A DNA stretch of 64,000 bases from Alphaproteobacteria bacterium (lineage in GTDB: Bacteria; Pseudomonadota; Alphaproteobacteria; JAAXGF01): contig CAUVXB020000002.1 in assembly GCA_963555825.3 (NCBI GenBank), positions 3,424,001-3,488,000 of the forward strand, read 5' to 3'. The notes beneath the pieces were generated by a model. It had not been told where the DNA came from. It searched no databases and was given only the letters and a program-made list of their open reading frames with translations. The number at the start of each line of letters is the position of its first letter. The first letter of the stretch is position 1. Made by a program: the position numbers and the translations under genes. Of this stretch, positions 27,006-36,444 are shown one piece after another.

Positions 27006-28808
<1,803 letters not shown>

Positions 28809-28818
28809 GCGTGTCGAC

Positions 28819-29151
28819 CTAGCGGCGCCGACGCCTCCGACGGCGCCTGCGGCGCAGGTGGCAGAGCCAGACCAGCAGGCCGCCGGGCACGCCGAGGACG
28901 AGCCAGGCGGGCAGGCTGAGCAAGGGCACGATGACGTCGGTCCAGAGCGCCGGGCTGATCGATTTTTCGACGAAGGCGCCGAAGCCGACCAGGCTGTTGG
29001 CGTGGATCAAGCTCCACGGCTCGGCGAAGGGGATCGACTGGTAGACGCCTTCGCTCCAATAGCGCGCCAACTCGGCGCCGAACGCGACCAGCGCGGCGAT
29101 GCACAACAGCCAGCCGATGACACCGCCGATCTTCCTTAATCTTGCGCGCAC
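28819..29151 (-). CDS. Hypothetical membrane protein
   Basis: 110 aa, two to three hydrophobic segments, poly-Arg tail. Confidence 0.6.
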   Translation of the reverse strand: MRARLRKIGGVIGWLLCIAALVAFGAELARYWSEGVYQSIPFAEPWSLIHANSLVGFGAFVEKSISPALWTDVIVPLLSLPAWLVLGVPGGLLVWLCHLRRRRRRRRRRR

Positions 29152-29243
29152 CGCCGCCCCCCGATCGCAGCCGTGCAGCCACCCTAGCGTATGGCTGCAT
29201 GCTCCGCTATACAGACCGGCGCAACGCCGCCGTTGGCGCGACA

Positions 29244-29331
29244 GGAGGGATGGCCGAGTGGTTTAAGGCGCACGCCTGGAAAGCGTGTTCACCGAAAGGT
29301 GTCCGGGGTTCGAATCCCCGTCCCTCCGCCA
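29244..29331 (+). tRNA. tRNA-Ser (GGA)
   Basis: GGAGGGA/TCCCTCC acceptor stem, CACGC-CTGGAAA-GCGTG anticodon arm, long variable arm, GGTTCGAATCC, encoded CCA. Confidence 0.96.
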
Positions 29332-30609
29332 CATCTAAGTAGTTAATATTACGTCACTTTTAGGAATTCTCGATATCTTGGGAATCTTCGCGTAGTTTCC
29401 GCGAGTTAGGCCGACAGCGCAGTCCAGCTGTGGTTTAGTGAGACCGGAGAGGTGCCGCAAACGGGCGGCTGACTGCGCCGAAGTCTCTTACGCCAGTTTT
29501 GGTGGTGCCCCAAGTGGCCCGCTGCGGGCACCGCGGAGCCTCATCCCATCCGGAAGTACGGCGTGATTTGCTAGGCAGGCGAGAGGCGTTGGGTTGCTTT
29601 CGGAATAGCGCCCGTCAAGTGATCCCGAGGACCGAGATCTGGTCCTGCCAAACGCTCGGCAGCTTGGTACGCAGTGAGAGCTGTTTTGCCGTGAGTTCAG
29701 GAGGGTGGCGATCGCGCAACACCGCCTTCACGATATCCGGGGCGAGAAAGCCGAGCCTGACGGTGCGGCAGAAGTAGGGACGCCCGACACCGGCTTGCCG
29801 CGCGAGATCGCTCATCGTGCTACCTTGGGCTTCGAGCATCATCTCGCGATAGCGATGCGCCTGGGCGAGGAGCCGCAGCATGCTGCGGTCCGGTGTTCTC
29901 CGCGACCGGTCGCCCGCACCGTCAATCAGCAACTTGATCTCCATGCCCGCCCGCTTCAGCTTTGCGGAGACGTCGAGGTCGAGCGTCGGCTCGACATCTG
30001 CCGCCGCCTGGTCGATCCGCATCATCTCGCTGTTGGCAATCACGACCTCCGGGATTCGGCTAGGTCGAACCCGAATCTTCACGCTCTCGCGCCGGACCTC
30101 GATCCGCGCGACAAGGGTCTGGAATATCCGACGCTTCTCCGGCGGCTCCAGGTTCGGCCAGCGCCCGGCAATATCCGCGGACTGGGTGAAGATCGATCGA
30201 CGCTCATTGACATCCTCGACGAAGGGTTCGATCGCGTCGAAGACCGCTGCTTCGTCACGTAGGAATCCAGTGATGCGCTCCGTCACCAATTGCTCGACGT
30301 CGCCCGCCGGAACCCGTCGCCCCGCATCCGACCTTTTTGGCCGCCCACGTTTGATGAGCGATTGGCTGACATAGTAGCGATAGCGGCGTCCCTTCTTGTT
30401 GGCGTGGGTCGGCGTCATCCGCTCGCCGACATCGTCGTAGATCAGACCGGCGAGCAGGCTCGGCTCGGCGGCATTGGCGCCGGATTGGCGCTCGACGCGA
30501 TTGGCGGCGAGCCGCTGCTGGACTTGGTTCCAGAGCGCCTCATCGATGATCGCCGCATGCTTGCCCGGGTAGCTCGTCTCCTTATATGAGGCGTTTGCTG
30601 TCAAGGTGG

Positions 30610-30890
30610 ATTTAATCTACGCCACATGATCGTCTCTTCCATTGGTTATGGCTTTGTATCCAGGGCGGGTCTTGCGATGAGTTCCGTGTTTCGTGCGAGT
30701 GATCGCATCACCTTATATCCGGCAGCTCCGATCCGGCTTGCCACAATGCTGTATACATGGACCATCACAGGACGGGGATGGGACTAATCTTGTGGACGGC
30801 ACCTTCGCCAAGGAGACATGCAGTCACACATCCAACCTGCCAACAAGCGTTCCCATCGGGGAATGAAGCCCGTTAGAACGCTGAGCTGAT
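30610..30890 (-). ncRNA. Putative bridge/seek RNA of the IS1111-type element
   Basis: Contains exact copies of both target flanks (30789-98, 30809-17) around a hairpin and a donor-junction match (30712-18). Boundaries approximate. Confidence 0.7.
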
Positions 30891-30898
30891 CCGCAGTC

Positions 30899-32032
30899 CT
30901 ATTTGACGACAGCACCCACCGGGATCAGCCCGGTTTCCAGATACCGCCAAAGCGCGATCGCCAGTTTGCGGGCCAGGGCGACGATCATGACGCGCCTGAT
31001 GCGCCCCTTCTGACCTTGGGTGCGGTCATGGAACCACTGGGTCAGAGCGCTATCGGGTTGATGGCGGACCCAAAGCCATGCGGCTTCGATCATGGCAACC
31101 CGTGCCAGCCGATTGCCCGCCTTGGAGATGCCTTGGCTGCGGCGCCCGTCGCCGCTGTCATAGGCACTGGGCGTGATCCCGATATAGCTTGCCACCTGTC
31201 GGCGATTGGCGAACTGGCGATAATAGACTTCCCGTGCGAGCGTCGTGGATAAGGCCGGGCCGAGGCCCTTTAAGCGCAGCAGCTGGTGACGCTTGCTTTC
31301 CGTGGCCACACACGGTGTCGGCGCTTGATCACGCTCACGCTCGACCTCGACGATCTGCGCTTGGACCTGGGCCAGTCTCGCGATCTCCCGCGCGATCTCG
31401 CGGCCGAGACGGTCCGGCAGGGGTCGGCCGTCTCCGGTGACCAGCGCCGCCGGTGTCAAGGTCTTGTAGCGCGCCTTGACATTGATGCCGCGAATGCCCT
31501 GACCGAATAGCAGACCCTTGATCCGGTTGATGTGGGCGGTTCGCTCGCGGACCAATCGGTCACGTTCCCGATGAGAGCGGCGAAGGTCCTCCTCCGCGAC
31601 GCTCGGAATCACCACCATGGAGCAGACATGACGCTCGCCGCGGCACCAGGCGATCAGCGTATGAAGAATATTCTCGACATCGATGCGGTCGGTCTTCACC
31701 CGCCGCGCCCGGCGGTTGACCCGCAAGCTGGCCGGCTCCATGACCAGACACTCGATGCCGCGCTGCTCGAGGAACCGCGCCAACCAGAAGCCGTCGTAGC
31801 CGGCCTCGTAGCACAGCGTTATCGTCGGCGTTCGACCCGTCACCTTGACCACCCGGTCCCGCGCCGCGTCCAGCTTGGCCATCAGTCCTTCAGCGTCGCC
31901 GCCCTTGATCGGATGCAAGCTCGGATTGCCCCGCCCCGGAGCCTGGATCGCCAAAAGCCAGCTGTTCTTGCTCAACTCCAGTGCCGCATAAATAGCGTGT
32001 TCATTGGAGGTCGATACCGGAAACTGTGCCAT
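30899..32032 (-). CDS. IS110-family transposase/recombinase
   Basis: ALELSK, CYEAG, KTDRIDV, YDSG..QGISKAGN, VALARKL. Confidence 0.93.
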   Translation of the reverse strand: MAQFPVSTSNEHAIYAALELSKNSWLLAIQAPGRGNPSLHPIKGGDAEGLMAKLDAARDRVVKVTGRTPTITLCYEAGYDGFWLARFLEQRGIECLVMEPASLRVNRRARRVKTDRIDVENILHTLIAWCRGERHVCSMVVIPSVAEEDLRRSHRERDRLVRERTAHINRIKGLLFGQGIRGINVKARYKTLTPAALVTGDGRPLPDRLGREIAREIARLAQVQAQIVEVERERDQAPTPCVATESKRHQLLRLKGLGPALSTTLAREVYYRQFANRRQVASYIGITPSAYDSGDGRRSQGISKAGNRLARVAMIEAAWLWVRHQPDSALTQWFHDRTQGQKGRIRRVMIVALARKLAIALWRYLETGLIPVGAVVK

Positions 32033-32594
32033 CGTGTCGCTCCTTCTGATCGAGGTTGAAATAATCGAAGGAGCTTGAGGCTGCGTCCTTCAGCCTCATA
32101 GCATCTTGTGGACGATCTCGCCGCGATAGATCCGGTTCTGCAACATTAGATAGAGCGCGCCACGAGCGAGCGGCATGCCGCCGGTCCGGCGGCCGTATTT
32201 GTCGATGCGGATCTTGCTGACGAACCCGTCTCTGTCGAGCGCTTCCTTGAGTGTACGCACCGAGCCCAGTTCGGCATAGCGGCGGTAGATGTGCCGGACC
32301 GTCTCGGCCTCGTGGCGGTTGACCACCAGCTTCCGGTCCGCCGCGTCGTAGCCGAGCGGCGGCAGGCCGCCCATCCACATGCCTTTCTTCTTCGAGGCGG
32401 CGATCTTGTCGCGAATGCGCTCGCCGGTGACCTCGCGCTCGAACTGCGCAAAGGACAGCAGCATGTTGAGCGTGAGGCGCCCCATCGAGGTGGTCGTATT
32501 GAACTGCTGGGTTACCGAGACGAACGACACACCGCGTGCGTCGAACACCTCGACGATCTTGGCGAAGTCGCCCAATGTCCGTGTCAAGCGGTCC

Positions 32595-33903
32595 TGTCCC
32601 TCCTGAAAACCTCGTACCGCACAGAATCCTTGGTCTTTCCGCCGAACGCCGGATACCTTCTCTGGCATGCCAACGATCGCCTTTCTGCTCCTGGCCACTC
32701 TCCGTGACGCTCTCCGCAGCCGCGTAGCGCTTCAGTTGGAAGTCCTTGCGCTACGCCAGCAACTCGCCACGATGAAGCGAATCTCGTCGCGGCCGTCGCT
32801 CCGTTCGGCAGATCGTCTGTTCTGGGTGTTGCTCTCTCGGCTTTGGCCAGCTTGGCGGGCCACGCTGGTGATCGTGAAGCCCGAGACGGTCATCACTTGG
32901 CACCGCAAGGGATTCCGCTTGTTCTGGACCTGGAAGTCGCGGCGGCGGAGAGGAGGGCGGGCACCGGTTCCGCGCGAGGTTCGCGACCTAATTCGACGGA
33001 TGAGCCGGGAGAACCCGCTCTGGGGCGCTCCCCGAATCCACGGCGAACTGGTGAAACTGGGGATCGAGGTGTCGGAGGCCTCGGTGTCCAAGTACATGGT
33101 GCGCCATCCGAAGCCACCCTCGCAAACCTGGCGGACTTTTCTCCGAAACCATGTGGGCTGTCTCGCATCGATCGACTTCTTCGTGGTGCCCACGGCGGCG
33201 TTCAGTCTCTTCTTCGCCTTCGTCGTGCTCCATCATGATCGCCGGCGGATCGTGCATTTCGCTGTGACGGCAAACCCGACCGCGGCGTGGGTGGCACAGC
33301 AGATCCGCGAAGCCTTCCCGTGGGACACGGCACCACGCCACGTGATCCGGGATCGCGACAGCGTGTACGGCGGCGTGTTTCGTGCTCGCATTTTAGCCAT
33401 GGGCATCGAGGAGGTCGTAACCGCCCCACGGTCGCCTTGGCAGAATCCGTTTGCCGAAAGGGTGATCGGGTCCATCAGGCGAGAGTGCTTGGACCACGTG
33501 ATCGTCCTCAACGAGCGGCACCTGCAGCGAATTCGCACGTCATACCTCGCCTCCTTCCATCGCTCTCGTACATACTTGTCGCTGGGAAAGGACGCACCCA
33601 ACGGGCGACCGGTCCAGCCTGCCGGTGCAAGGAAGATCGTCGCGTTCCCGCAGTTCGGCCGACTGAATCACGGTAACGTACGGCGGGCAGCCTGATCCGA
33701 ACCTACCCGGCTGCGGCGAATCAACATCCTTAGTGCGGATACGGTCAATCGTATGTAGGGACTTGAGCAAACCGGCCGCATTCGACGAAATGGCCTTTAC
33801 CCGTTAGGCGCACGCTCATCAACGTTCGATTTATCCCAGGCGGGCGCATCGAGCAGGCGACCCGGTCCGGGTTATGCGCTATATTGGATTTTCAGGAACG
33901 ACA
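32595..33903 (+). mobile_element. IS481/IS3-like element (integrase core)
   Basis: TGT...ACA ends, TIR TGTCCCTCCTGAAAA / TTTTCAGGAACGACA; no exact TSD. Confidence 0.8.
32667..33695 (+). CDS. Integrase-core transposase
   Basis: ENPLWGAPRIHGEL, SIDFF, IRDRD, PWQNPFAERVIGSIRRECLDH. Confidence 0.88.
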   Translation: MPTIAFLLLATLRDALRSRVALQLEVLALRQQLATMKRISSRPSLRSADRLFWVLLSRLWPAWRATLVIVKPETVITWHRKGFRLFWTWKSRRRRGGRAPVPREVRDLIRRMSRENPLWGAPRIHGELVKLGIEVSEASVSKYMVRHPKPPSQTWRTFLRNHVGCLASIDFFVVPTAAFSLFFAFVVLHHDRRRIVHFAVTANPTAAWVAQQIREAFPWDTAPRHVIRDRDSVYGGVFRARILAMGIEEVVTAPRSPWQNPFAERVIGSIRRECLDHVIVLNERHLQRIRTSYLASFHRSRTYLSLGKDAPNGRPVQPAGARKIVAFPQFGRLNHGNVRRAA

Positions 33904-34457
33904 GGTTCATGGTGAGCTGGATATTCCGGTTGCCATGTGATCTTGTTTCAGCATCAAAATCATACGGAATCTCAACAGTTTAATTTACGCTCACCGACCC
34001 TTTCACAGCGCGCCGTGAATAATCCGGGCTAGATCGGGCCGCTGGAGTTAGGCTATCCTTATGAGCCAGTCATTCGGAGCCAATAGACTTTCCGGCCGAT
34101 GCGTTAATCAGGGGAGGATTCGACAATGAGTGAAAACGCTCCGCCAAAATATCCCACGTCGAATGTGCCAATCGACTGGCAGCAGATTGAGCGCTGGGAC
34201 CGGCGCTATTACTTGCACAGCTGGGTGGCCGAGGACGAATATGTTTTCACCGGCGTCGAGAGAACGGACGGCAATTATCTTTATTTGGCAGATGGCACCC
34301 GGCTGCTCGATTTCCGCAGCCAGTTCGTCTCCGACAGCATGGGTCACAGGCACCCGCGTGTACACGAGGAAATAAGACGAGCCATGGAGCGCTACGGCCA
34401 TGTGATGATGGCCTTGGCCACCGATTATCGCGCGCGGGCCGCAAAACTTGTCATCGA

Positions 34458-34585
34458 TGTATCGCACCCGGTTCCTTGGACACAAGTTTGTCTCATGCGG
34501 CGGGCCTGAGTGACATCGCGGTGTATCGCACCCGGTTCCTTGGACACAAGTTTGTCTCATGCGGCGGGCCTGAGTGACATCGCGG
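34458..34585. repeat. 64-bp tandem duplication of the IS end
   Basis: 34458-34521 is repeated at 34522-34585. Confidence 0.9.
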
Positions 34586-34944
34586 TGTGCCACGCCTGAC
34601 GAGCTTGAGCGGGGCTCAGGTAGCCGTTCTTCTCCACGATCCACTGGGCATTGTACTGTTCGACGAACCCGCGGACGGCGTTCCGCAGCTCCGCGATGTT
34701 GCGGTAGATGCGGCCATGGATGATCTGTTCCTTGAGCGTGCGATTGAACCTCTCGGCGACGCCGTTGGTCTGGGGCTGTTCGACGAAGGCGTAGGACGGC
34801 TGGATGCCCCAGAACTTGATCTGGTTTGAGAACGGCAGAGCAATAATCCCCCACTGAAGCGGCCGGTCGATCCGGCTGCGGCGGACCAAAATGGGACCGC
34901 GTATAGCCTTCTGTCAGGGTTGCTCTGACTGGAAGGCGGGGGGG

Positions 34945-36444
34945 ATGTATCGGGTGGAGTTGTACGCACGGGTTCGGCGGGCGTGTCATGTCGAGGGGAT
35001 GAGCACCCGCGAGGCCTCGCGGGTGTTTGGTGTAGACCGCAAGACGGTCCGTAAGATGCTGTCGTTCTCGGTGCCGCCAGGGTATCGCCGAAGCGCGCCG
35101 CCGAGGCGGCCAAAGCTGGGTCCGTTCACGGGAATCATCGATCGGATCTTGGAAGACGATCGGACCAGCCACCGCAAGCAACGGCACACTGCGAAGCGCA
35201 TCTTCGACCGCCTCCGGGACGAGTACGGTTTCACGGGCGGCTACACCATCGTGAAGGACTACGTTCGTGAGCAGGGGCTTCGGTCGCGTGAGGTGTTCGT
35301 GCCACTCTCCCATTCCCCCGGTCACGCCCAGGCGGACTTCGGCGAAGCGATGGCGGTGATCGGCGGCGCGTTACGGAAGATCCACTTCCTTGCCTTCGAC
35401 CTTCCCCACAGTGATGGTTGCTTTGTTGCGGCCTATCCGGCGGAGACGACCGAAGCATTCTGCGATGGCCACAACGCGGCGTTTGCCTTCTTCGGCGGCG
35501 TCCCCCGATCCATCCTGTACGACAACACCAAGCTGGCGGTTGCCCGGATCCTGGGCGATGGGAAGCGGCAGCGAACGCGCGTCTTCACGGAGCTTCAGTC
35601 CCACTATCTGTTCGAGGACAGGTTCGGCCGGCCGGGCAAGGGCAACGACAAGGGCAAGGTCGAGGGACTGGTCGGCTTCATCCGGCGGAACTTCCTGGTC
35701 CCCGTCCCGCGTGCCGAGAGCTTCGCGGCCCTCAACGATGCTCTCGCCGAACAGTGCCGCCGGCGCCAGGCGGCGCGGCTGCGGGGCCACAAGGAGACCA
35801 TCGGCGAGCGTCTCGAGCGGGATCGTCAAGTTCTCTTGCCATTGCCGCCTGCTCCCTATGATGCCTGCGATAAGCGCCCTGGACGGGCGAGTTCGCTGTC
35901 GCTGGTGCGTTACCGCAGCAACGACTATTCCGTGCCCGTGGCCTACGGCCACCGTGAGGTGCTCATCCGGGGCTACGTCGATGAGGTGGTGATCAGCTGC
36001 GGGGCCGAGGTGATCGCCCGGCACCGCCGGTCCTACGACAGCGAGGACCTGATCTTCGACCCGCTGCATTACCTGCCCTTGATCGAGCAGAAGATCGGCG
36101 CCCTCGACCAGGCCGCGCCATTGGCGGGCTGGGACCTGCCCGAGGCCTTCATCACTCTGCGGCGGCTCCTCGAAGCTCGTATGGGCAAGGCAGGCAAGCG
36201 CGAGTACGTCCAGGTGCTCCGTCTACTGGAGACCTTCCGGCTCGAGGAGGTCGAGGGTGCGGTCGGCGACGCCCTGCGGCTCGGCGCAATCGGCTTTGAT
36301 GCGGTGAAGCACCTGGTACTGTGCCGCATCGAGCGGCGGCCGCCCAGGCTCAACCTCGACGTCTATCCGTATCTGCCGCGCGCCCGGGTCGCGATGACGT
36401 CCGCCAAGTCGTACATGAGCCTGCTGTCGGGGCTCGGCGCATGA
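34945..36444 (+). CDS. istA: IS21 transposase
   Basis: PGHAQADFG, ILYDN, GNDKGKVE, YSVP. Confidence 0.93.
   Translation: MYRVELYARVRRACHVEGMSTREASRVFGVDRKTVRKMLSFSVPPGYRRSAPPRRPKLGPFTGIIDRILEDDRTSHRKQRHTAKRIFDRLRDEYGFTGGYTIVKDYVREQGLRSREVFVPLSHSPGHAQADFGEAMAVIGGALRKIHFLAFDLPHSDGCFVAAYPAETTEAFCDGHNAAFAFFGGVPRSILYDNTKLAVARILGDGKRQRTRVFTELQSHYLFEDRFGRPGKGNDKGKVEGLVGFIRRNFLVPVPRAESFAALNDALAEQCRRRQAARLRGHKETIGERLERDRQVLLPLPPAPYDACDKRPGRASSLSLVRYRSNDYSVPVAYGHREVLIRGYVDEVVISCGAEVIARHRRSYDSEDLIFDPLHYLPLIEQKIGALDQAAPLAGWDLPEAFITLRRLLEARMGKAGKREYVQVLRLLETFRLEEVEGAVGDALRLGAIGFDAVKHLVLCRIERRPPRLNLDVYPYLPRARVAMTSAKSYMSLLSGLGA

Follow-up and report, generated by a model that had tools for sequence, protein, structure and literature searches.

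The IS1111 elements ISEc11, ISPa11, ISKpn4 and ISPst6, which use a seekRNA, have a long non-coding region downstream of the transposase gene and subterminal repeats at their ends, according to the passages on them in Siddiquee et al. (2024, PMC11187229). In the same passages, the top-strand match of the seekRNA lies 5' of the bottom-strand match, the reverse of the IS110-type order, the two matches overlap in the target, and circle-junction promoters are documented for the family, with one reported for ISEc11. The bridge RNA of the insertion sequence (IS) IS621, as described by Durrant et al. (2024, PMC11208160), contains two loops with two guides each, which address opposite strands around the short core CT and specify target and donor separately, the donor being more conserved than the target; in IS621 the RNA is encoded upstream of the gene, in the left end. 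Sections of the same paper give subterminal inverted repeats of 7–17 bp as an IS1111 criterion and report that such an RNA was predicted at the right end in 93% of the surveyed IS1111 elements from ISfinder. Here, an insertion sequence was analyzed that lies in a window of 64,000 nucleotides (nt), meaning the whole stretch from position 3,424,001 to 3,488,000 of contig CAUVXB020000002.1 in assembly GCA_963555825.3 of an Alphaproteobacteria bacterium. We regard it, with high confidence, as an RNA-guided IS110-family element of IS1111-type layout that uses the seekRNA/bridge-RNA mechanism. It has the downstream non-coding region, the subterminal repeats, the guide order and the overlapping target matches of the IS1111 elements. 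With IS621 it shares the predicted plan of two loops with two guides each, the separate specification of target and donor and the better conservation of the donor part, whereas the position of the RNA and the order of the guides are the opposite of those in IS621, and a 3-nt overlap, CTT on the plus strand, stands in place of CT. The features are listed in Table 1.

Table 1. Features of the insertion sequence and of its host gene (positions in the window)
Feature	Position	Strand	Description or evidence
Insertion sequence, whole	30584..32107	-	1524 bp with one CTT/AAG overlap copy; 11 copies, empty-site contigs
Second CTT overlap copy, target side	30581..30583	.	CTT at both ends at all genome sites; 3-nt ambiguity
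Right non-coding end, 315 nt	30584..30898	-	Downstream of gene, encodes guide RNA; sequence, alignment of relatives
Outward -35 hexamer TTGACA	30599..30604	-	15 nt from right end
Hairpin 3' of donor loop (UGCGA...UCGCA)	30694..30707	-	Helix 6, 90.9% paired
3' donor guide, RNA AUAUAAG	30712..30718	-	Plus strand CTTATAT; equals last bases of right end plus core
Donor-loop hairpin	30721..30742	-	Invariant save its loop in 25/25 aligned sequences
5' donor guide, RNA AGCAU	30746..30750	-	Plus strand ATGCT; complementary to first five bases of left end, ATGCT
3' strands of target-loop stems	30759..30785	-	RNAalifold and pair counts
3' target guide (B guide), RNA GUCCACAAG	30789..30797	-	Same sense as left flank plus core (AAG)
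Hairpin between target guides (GGC-ACCTTC-GCC)	30798..30809	-	Columns 79-81/91-93, 94.7% paired
5' target guide (T guide), RNA AUGUCUCCUU	30810..30819	-	Pairs with top strand, core plus right flank (transposase orientation)
5' strands of target-loop stems	30822..30841	-	RNAalifold and pair counts
Transposase gene, 377 aa	30899..32032	-	Pfam DEDD_Tnp_IS110 and Transposase_20, NCBIfam NF033542
Left non-coding end, 72 nt	32033..32104	-	Upstream of gene; starts ATGCT, then subterminal repeat ATGAGGC
Interrupted large serine recombinase, C-terminal part	29615..30583	-	Pfam Zn_ribbon_recom; collinear with 583-aa paralogue
Same recombinase, N-proximal part	32105..32590	-	Pfam Resolvase from profile position 73, and Recombinase

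The element is an active, autonomous member of the IS110 family, and its architecture is of the IS1111 type. The transposase matched PF01548 (the DEDD N-terminal, RuvC-like domain; E = 1.1e-9) and PF02371 (the C-terminal Transposase_20 domain; E = 1.6e-16), and the equivalog profile for 'IS110 family RNA-guided transposase' was matched with 204 bits against a cut-off of 140, over profile positions 1-341 of 343. The subterminal inverted repeats ATGAGGC/GCCTCAT (30586-30592, 2 nt from the right end, and 32093-32099, 5 nt from the left end) are 7 bp long and fall within the IS1111 range. The larger non-coding part is the downstream one, and it holds the guides and the covarying structure; the terminus of the left end, ATGCTATGAGG, is kept in relatives. 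Together with the guide order described below, this bears out the classification as an IS1111-type IS110 element made in an earlier note, which was drawn up from the letters of this stretch alone and whose motifs were all found in place.

The boundaries, the copy number and a natural empty site were observed directly. The source genome (6.04 Mb in two contigs) contains 11 full-length copies together with fragments. All full copies end at identical bases; 9/11 are identical to the window copy, two have one base changed, and one full copy exceeds the others in length by 2 nt. Among the metagenomic data, which were used as contigs throughout, those of the DNA runs X6 (labelled a sponge metagenome) and X1 join the window flanks and omit exactly 1524 bp, with 3 shared or ambiguous nucleotides. 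Their exact junction is GTCTC-CTT-GTGGACG, the empty site that had been proposed before any such contig was seen. This empty site thus exists in related populations, and the insertion in the window is recent. A real target duplication does not occur: the empty and the occupied site differ by 1524 bp, and CTT stands at both junctions everywhere (30581-83 and 32105-07 in the window). The depth of X1 on the element was about 12 times that on the flanks. In addition, contigs of the RNA-library runs X13 and X16 have loose ends at both ends of the element with flanks that are absent from the source genome, which suggests extra insertion sites in related populations.

The copies in the source genome occupy six distinct sites. 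The window site, cGTCTC-CTT-GTGGACG on the plus strand, lies in a large serine recombinase gene beside a tRNA gene. The second site, gGTCTC-CTT-GTGGCC on the plus strand, is a single position in istA of an IS21-family element (2570 bp, coding for IstA with rve and Mu-transpos_C_2 domains and for IstB), and it holds seven full and two partial copies. At locus L005 (loci L005, L006, L009, L015 and L016 are in the source genome, G000, and those from L021 upward in relatives), ATGTCTC-CTT-GTGATG is bordered on one side by unique DNA with ATGTCTCCTT at its end and on the other by the first base of a different IS110-family element. L009 (ATGTCTC-CTT-GTGACC) is arranged in the same way beside an IS5/IS1182-like element, L006 (ATGTCTC-CTT-ATGGCT) is flanked by a caspase-domain gene and by an unassigned frame, and L016 is a fragment represented by its right side only, CTT-GTAGCC, in the flank CTT-GTAGCC-AGG-AGGAGACAT. 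As a separate observation, a truncated variant right end (L015, C1:1251402-1251631 of G000) sits at the same IS21 site. Its RNA-encoding part, from the donor loop to the B guide, is identical to that of the window copy, and the stretch of approximately 60 nt that separates the RNA from the -35 hexamer has strongly diverged.

The right non-coding end matches these sites on both sides of the insertion point. In transposase orientation, the T guide AUGUCUCCUU is the complement of AAG-GAGACAU on the right side of the insertion point; the match covers 8 nt both at the window site and at the IS21 site, and 10/10 at L005, L006 and L009. The B guide GUCCACAAG, taken with the C that precedes it (30798), matches the left side over 10 nt at the window, 7 nt at the IS21 site and 6 nt at L005 and L009. 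The pairing on the T side thus spans 8-10 nt and 6 nt are enough on the B side, a natural record of mismatch tolerance. On the plus strand the two motifs read CTTGTGGACG (30789-98) and CAAGGAGAC (30809-17); the right-side guide had previously been given too short, and the T guide reaches from 30810 to 30819. The top-strand match (AUGUCUCCUU) stands 5' of the match in top sense to the bottom strand (GUCCACAAG), which is the IS1111 order. When the 315-nt end was shuffled 20,000 times, both target matches at their observed length (8 + 10 nt, core included) were reached in 0/20,000 shuffles. The proposal that the non-coding end carries target guides is upheld by these matches at all genome sites.

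Covariation between guides and flanks was then examined in relatives. One genome per species was scanned, which gave 80 loci with transposases 49-89% identical, and loci with transposases 57-89% identical were used to follow changes of guides and flanks. Among close relatives the non-coding ends align well, and differences in the guides fall exactly on the positions at which the flanks have changed. On the right side, the T guide and the flank agree at 11/11 positions in L021 (AATGTCCGCTT against AAGCGGACATT) and L026 (AACGTCCGCTT against AAGCGGACGTT) and at 10/11 positions in L024 and L029, and in L027 (CACGGTAGCTT against AAGCTGCCGTA) they pair with one G-U pair. On the left side, the B guide is identical to the flank in L023 (GGTAGAG), L033 (CCCTGAG) and L034 (CCGCGAG) and agrees at 7/7 positions in both L024 and L025; it covaries with the left flank, the base beside AG included. 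Several relatives are inserted in hairpins, for example ATGTCCGCTTTACCCCCAAAAG|element|CGGACAT, and their T guide equals one arm of the palindrome.

These matches were evaluated with a permutation test: for each flank, the longest exact match to the cognate target loop was set against that to the loops of the others. One representative per guide-target combination was kept and near-duplicates were dropped, which left 12 representatives of the 25 loci that have a right flank and 15 of the 27 that have a left one. The test was made alignment-free because MAFFT put the T guide of the L030-L035 clade in the wrong place; there it sits in an apparent insertion of the alignment (CGAAACCC against the flank GGGTTTCG in L030 and L032). 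The cognate mean was 6.6 against 4.3 on the right side and 5.7 against 4.4 on the left side, and a sum as high as the observed one was obtained in 0/100,000 permutations on either side. Guide-target covariation among homologues, which the earlier note had named as a check, was therefore found on both sides. That chance produced the agreement of the non-coding end with the flanks is refuted by the shuffles and the permutations and has next to no credibility, even though the two short motifs of the donor loop, AGCAU with 5 nt and AUAUAAG with 7 nt, are individually weak.

The same end contains a structure that is maintained by paired changes. In 25 aligned sequences, a 30-pair structure was obtained with RNAalifold and assessed by pair counts: 95.3% of the cells were paired, compared to 34-46% with the partners slid. 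Twelve pairs were changed on both sides, 10 of them in the target-loop stems (helices 1 to 3), and the covariation score was 0.33 against 0.15 in shuffles, with 0/500 as high. In the hairpin between the target guides (GGCGAAGGUGCC in gene sense) a C-G pair is replaced by U-A in two sequences, and at one pair of helix 6, 12 sequences have A-U and eight have C-G. The G-U pairs fit the gene-sense strand only, and one U-G pair is invariant in 25/25 sequences. The donor hairpin is invariant, so covariation neither supports nor contradicts it. Pairing of CUGUGAUGGUCC with GGAACUCAUCGCA in a long-range stem that would close the donor loop was also considered and was rejected, since both RNAalifold and the pair counts favour pairing of the 5' strand of this stem with the stem below the target loop.

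In the mechanism that we propose, the non-coding end would be transcribed in the sense of the transposase and give a structured RNA of approximately 150-200 nt. In its target loop, AUGUCUCCUU would pair right of the crossover with the top strand and GUCCACAAG left of it with the bottom strand, and in its donor loop AGCAU and AUAUAAG would pair likewise with the joined ends of the excised circle. The complex of recombinase and RNA would recombine circle and target at CTT/AAG, in keeping with the missing target duplication, and a promoter is probably completed in the circle only, where the left end joins the -35 of the right end. For RNA production, binding by the recombinase, circle formation and the activity of the junction promoter, this scheme follows the published mechanism of the family. 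The circle junction was seen in no contig examined; contigs drop rare forms, and this result has no bearing on the scheme.

Several observations weigh against this interpretation. In the transposase, the apparent first catalytic residue of the clade is E and not D: the motif reads A-L-E-L-S-K (residues 17-22, approximately 31967-31984 on the minus strand) in 18/18 clade sequences as judged by eye, where the usual motif is G-[IV]-D-[LV]-[AS]-K and the other IS110-family transposase of the source genome has G-V-D-L-A-K. The Rfam 15 scan of positions 28000-35000, with E up to 1, returned the tRNA and two chance matches, none of them in the element. The single-sequence fold of the 315-nt end was no better than that of shuffles (z = 0.91); since such folding was uninformative, the structure was taken from covariation. 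The contigs of the RNA-library runs X13 and X16 do cover the element, but with about 12 copies a carry-over of DNA would look alike; in X13 the non-coding end and the 3' part of the gene are deeper than the 5' part. A promoter scan, which covered the element in its integrated state, returned no sigma-70-like promoter. The donor loop adds further points, which are given below.

Part of these observations could be accommodated if the guide-like motifs acted as DNA, either as binding sites for the recombinase or as single-stranded DNA guides as in IS200/IS605. No transcript was seen in the contigs of the RNA libraries, which cannot show transcription, and the scan found no internal promoter. Motifs acting as DNA would not account for the strand-specific G-U pairs and the compensatory changes in the stems, and the protein belongs to an RNA-guided equivalog. 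Experiments have demonstrated the dependence on RNA for four IS1111-family elements and one IS110-family element in the account of PMC11187229 and for IS621 in that of PMC11208160. We therefore consider the DNA-motif explanation very improbable and retain the RNA-guided one.

For the donor loop, the earlier note had read CTTATAT and ATGCT as guides to the two strands of the circle junction. Their positions were confirmed and one compensatory change speaks for the pairing, whereas six mismatched loci and the frequency of AUAUAAG matches in shuffles do not. The 5' guide AGCAU, 5 nt without the core, is weak on its own. It is replaced by AGGAU in 12/31 loci with a donor loop, of which seven, from five genomes, have the left end ATCCT and three have ATGCT; the remaining two have no left end on the contig. 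The change to AGGAU/ATCCT was probably a single event. AGCAG occurs in L030-L032 and AGAAU in L033, and the left end is ATGCT in L030, L032 and L033, with none on the contig in L031. Thus, the 5' donor guide is mismatched with the left end in six loci (L030, L032, L033, L045, L047 and L051). The 3' guide AUAUAAG is invariant in 25/25 aligned sequences and the right end is almost invariant as well, so that a guide which never varies has no covariation to offer, and a 7-nt match of this kind was reached in 271/20,000 shuffles. Based on these sequence comparisons, the donor pairing is plausible, with one compensated event, and less firm than the target pairing.

The 3-nt CTT core that had been claimed was borne out in part. 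CTT was present at every junction in the source genome. Relatives, however, can have different outer bases in the triplets of their two junctions: L023, L027, L033-35 and L050 have GAG or TAG on the left against AAG on the right, and most of the L038 clade has AAG at the left junction and AAA at the right. Only the middle base of the triplet is shared in every case, and the actual crossover may therefore involve fewer than 3 nt, much as IS621 has the dinucleotide core CT.

A junction promoter composed of the outward TTGACA and a -10 formed at the joined ends had likewise been suggested. Its -35 part is well conserved: TTGAC[A/T] occurs 15-16 nt from the right end in 25/31 relatives, with a variable spacer. 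Of the six relatives left, four stop or are disrupted short of the end, one has the hexamer together with a variant repeat, and in L037 it was not found. The -10 part was weaker; as read from the end sequences, joining would put GATGCT 17 nt downstream of the -35, which agrees with the -10 consensus at 3/6 positions.

The protein is atypical for IS1111. It has 377 aa, compared to the 330-350 aa stated for IS1111 transposases in PMC11187229. Its identity to the IS4321-family transposases is approximately 24% in an alignment over residues 58-362, and its apparent first catalytic position has E instead of D. Similarity to IS621 was detected in the C-terminal domain only (E = 7e-8); IS621 and ISCro4 align over residues 218-369, and the C-terminal GITPSAYDSG aligns with the SG motif region of IS621. 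The motifs CYEAG and KTDRID are also present in the transposase. The IS621 bridge RNA has reportedly been treated by Hiraizumi et al. (2024, PMC11208158) as well. The mechanism is that of the seekRNA/bridge RNA of 2024 and the element is an ordinary further example of it; a close relative may already be among the ISfinder-wide bridge-RNA predictions of the two 2024 papers. What it adds is a well-documented natural case of targeting, with one identical element at six sites, an empty site that still exists, and guides and targets that have changed together. The divergent recombinase clade could also be tried as programmable tools, which leaves the known mechanism unchanged.

The choice of targets was a further question. 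According to the earlier note, the element is aimed at the conserved (I)VHKE codons of island serine recombinases, and other copies might sit in recombinase genes. This was not supported. The recombinase gene hosts only 1/6 distinct sites, and the other copies lie mostly in IS21 istA or at REP-like (repetitive extragenic palindrome) arms. In the intact paralogue of 583 aa, which is 92% identical, the sequence GTCCATAAGGAGAC differs from the window site by one mismatch and holds no copy; its variant CCATAAG is in use at L006. A paralogue with 46% identity carries GCCGTCCACAAGGGCAAG, with a perfect B side and no T side, and is also empty. The genome-wide search of the source genome found no further perfect site of the window type.

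A broader form of this idea is that the element is a dedicated parasite of mobile elements, with guides selected for the HKET codons of serine recombinases and IS21 transposases. The window site is the best match of the B guide, with 10 nt; 8/11 full copies lie in genes of mobile elements (seven in IS21 istA and one in the recombinase), two more abut the ends of other insertion sequences, and a precedent is given by ISEc21, which in the description of PMC11187229 targets the DDE codons of IS3 transposases. HKET is in frame at both coding sites, IS21 istA and the recombinase, but this follows trivially from the shared nucleotides. The seven IS21-borne full copies have at least 1500 bp of the left flank and 273-966 bp of the right flank in common; with such long shared flanks, they may descend from one insertion that was spread by the IS21 element. 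Moreover, 69 GTCTCCTTGTGG sites are empty genome-wide, nearly all of them within copies of the IS21 element, and the near-perfect and the B-side-only recombinase paralogues are empty too. Close relatives target the REP-like hairpins ATGTCCGCTTT..AAAAGCGGACAT, of whose arm the T guide is a 2-nt variant, and in a genome crowded with insertion sequences, matches within them are expected. A dedicated parasite is thus an unlikely description. The data fit a guide match of approximately 12-15 nt that happens to occur in genes of mobile elements. ISEc21 (IS110), IS4321/IS5075 and the IS1111-attC group all have preferred sites in other mobile elements; here, the mobile-element sites share only this match and coexist with REP-like sites.

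A more specific proposal joins two claims. The clade would be a distinct IS110 subgroup, with a 377-aa protein, an E at the first catalytic position, a 3' bridge RNA and target guides of approximately 10 nt and 9 nt, and a 2-nt change of the T guide from ATGTCCGCTT to ATGTCTCCTT would have redirected the element to genes of mobile elements, with IS21 istA and the island serine recombinase as new targets. Its premise is a scarcity of free targets, nearly all ancestral-type REP-like hairpins being already occupied by other insertion sequences. If true, it would be a natural case of guide reprogramming towards hyperparasitism; we hold the joint claim to be unlikely.

The source genome is rich in insertion sequences. 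It contains dozens of near-identical copies of the 2570-bp IS21-family element (e.g., L101, C1:11300-14100), and, in addition, an IS5/IS1182-like element of 1.7 kb is present about 27 times and an IS110-family element of 1.36 kb, whose transposase has 339 aa, about seven times. The IS5/IS1182-like elements and the second IS110-family elements, the two families that neighbour the copies at L009 and L005, are themselves inserted beside conserved arms, ...ATGTCTGCTG or ATGTCCGCT, and the far side is often CAGACAT (e.g., C2:1014552, C2:2176766 and C1:680245 of G000, and others). These arms look like those of a REP-like palindrome family that is a target for several element families. The genome search found no intact palindromes with ATGTCTCC arms, and three hairpins of the wider family only.

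The recombinase gene in the window is broken a second time. Its N-proximal frame is cut at the 5' side at approximately 32590, homology to the paralogue begins at residue 47 of the open frame, and the first ~100 codons are gone, including the region that holds the catalytic serine in the intact paralogue. Upstream of ~32590 lies unrelated sequence beside an open reading frame (32667-33695, plus strand; rve_3 and HTH_32) that probably belongs to another insertion sequence. Some 290 bp separate the tRNA gene (29244-29328, 61 bits) from the 3' end of the recombinase gene, the arrangement expected for the integrase of a genomic island inserted at a tRNA gene.

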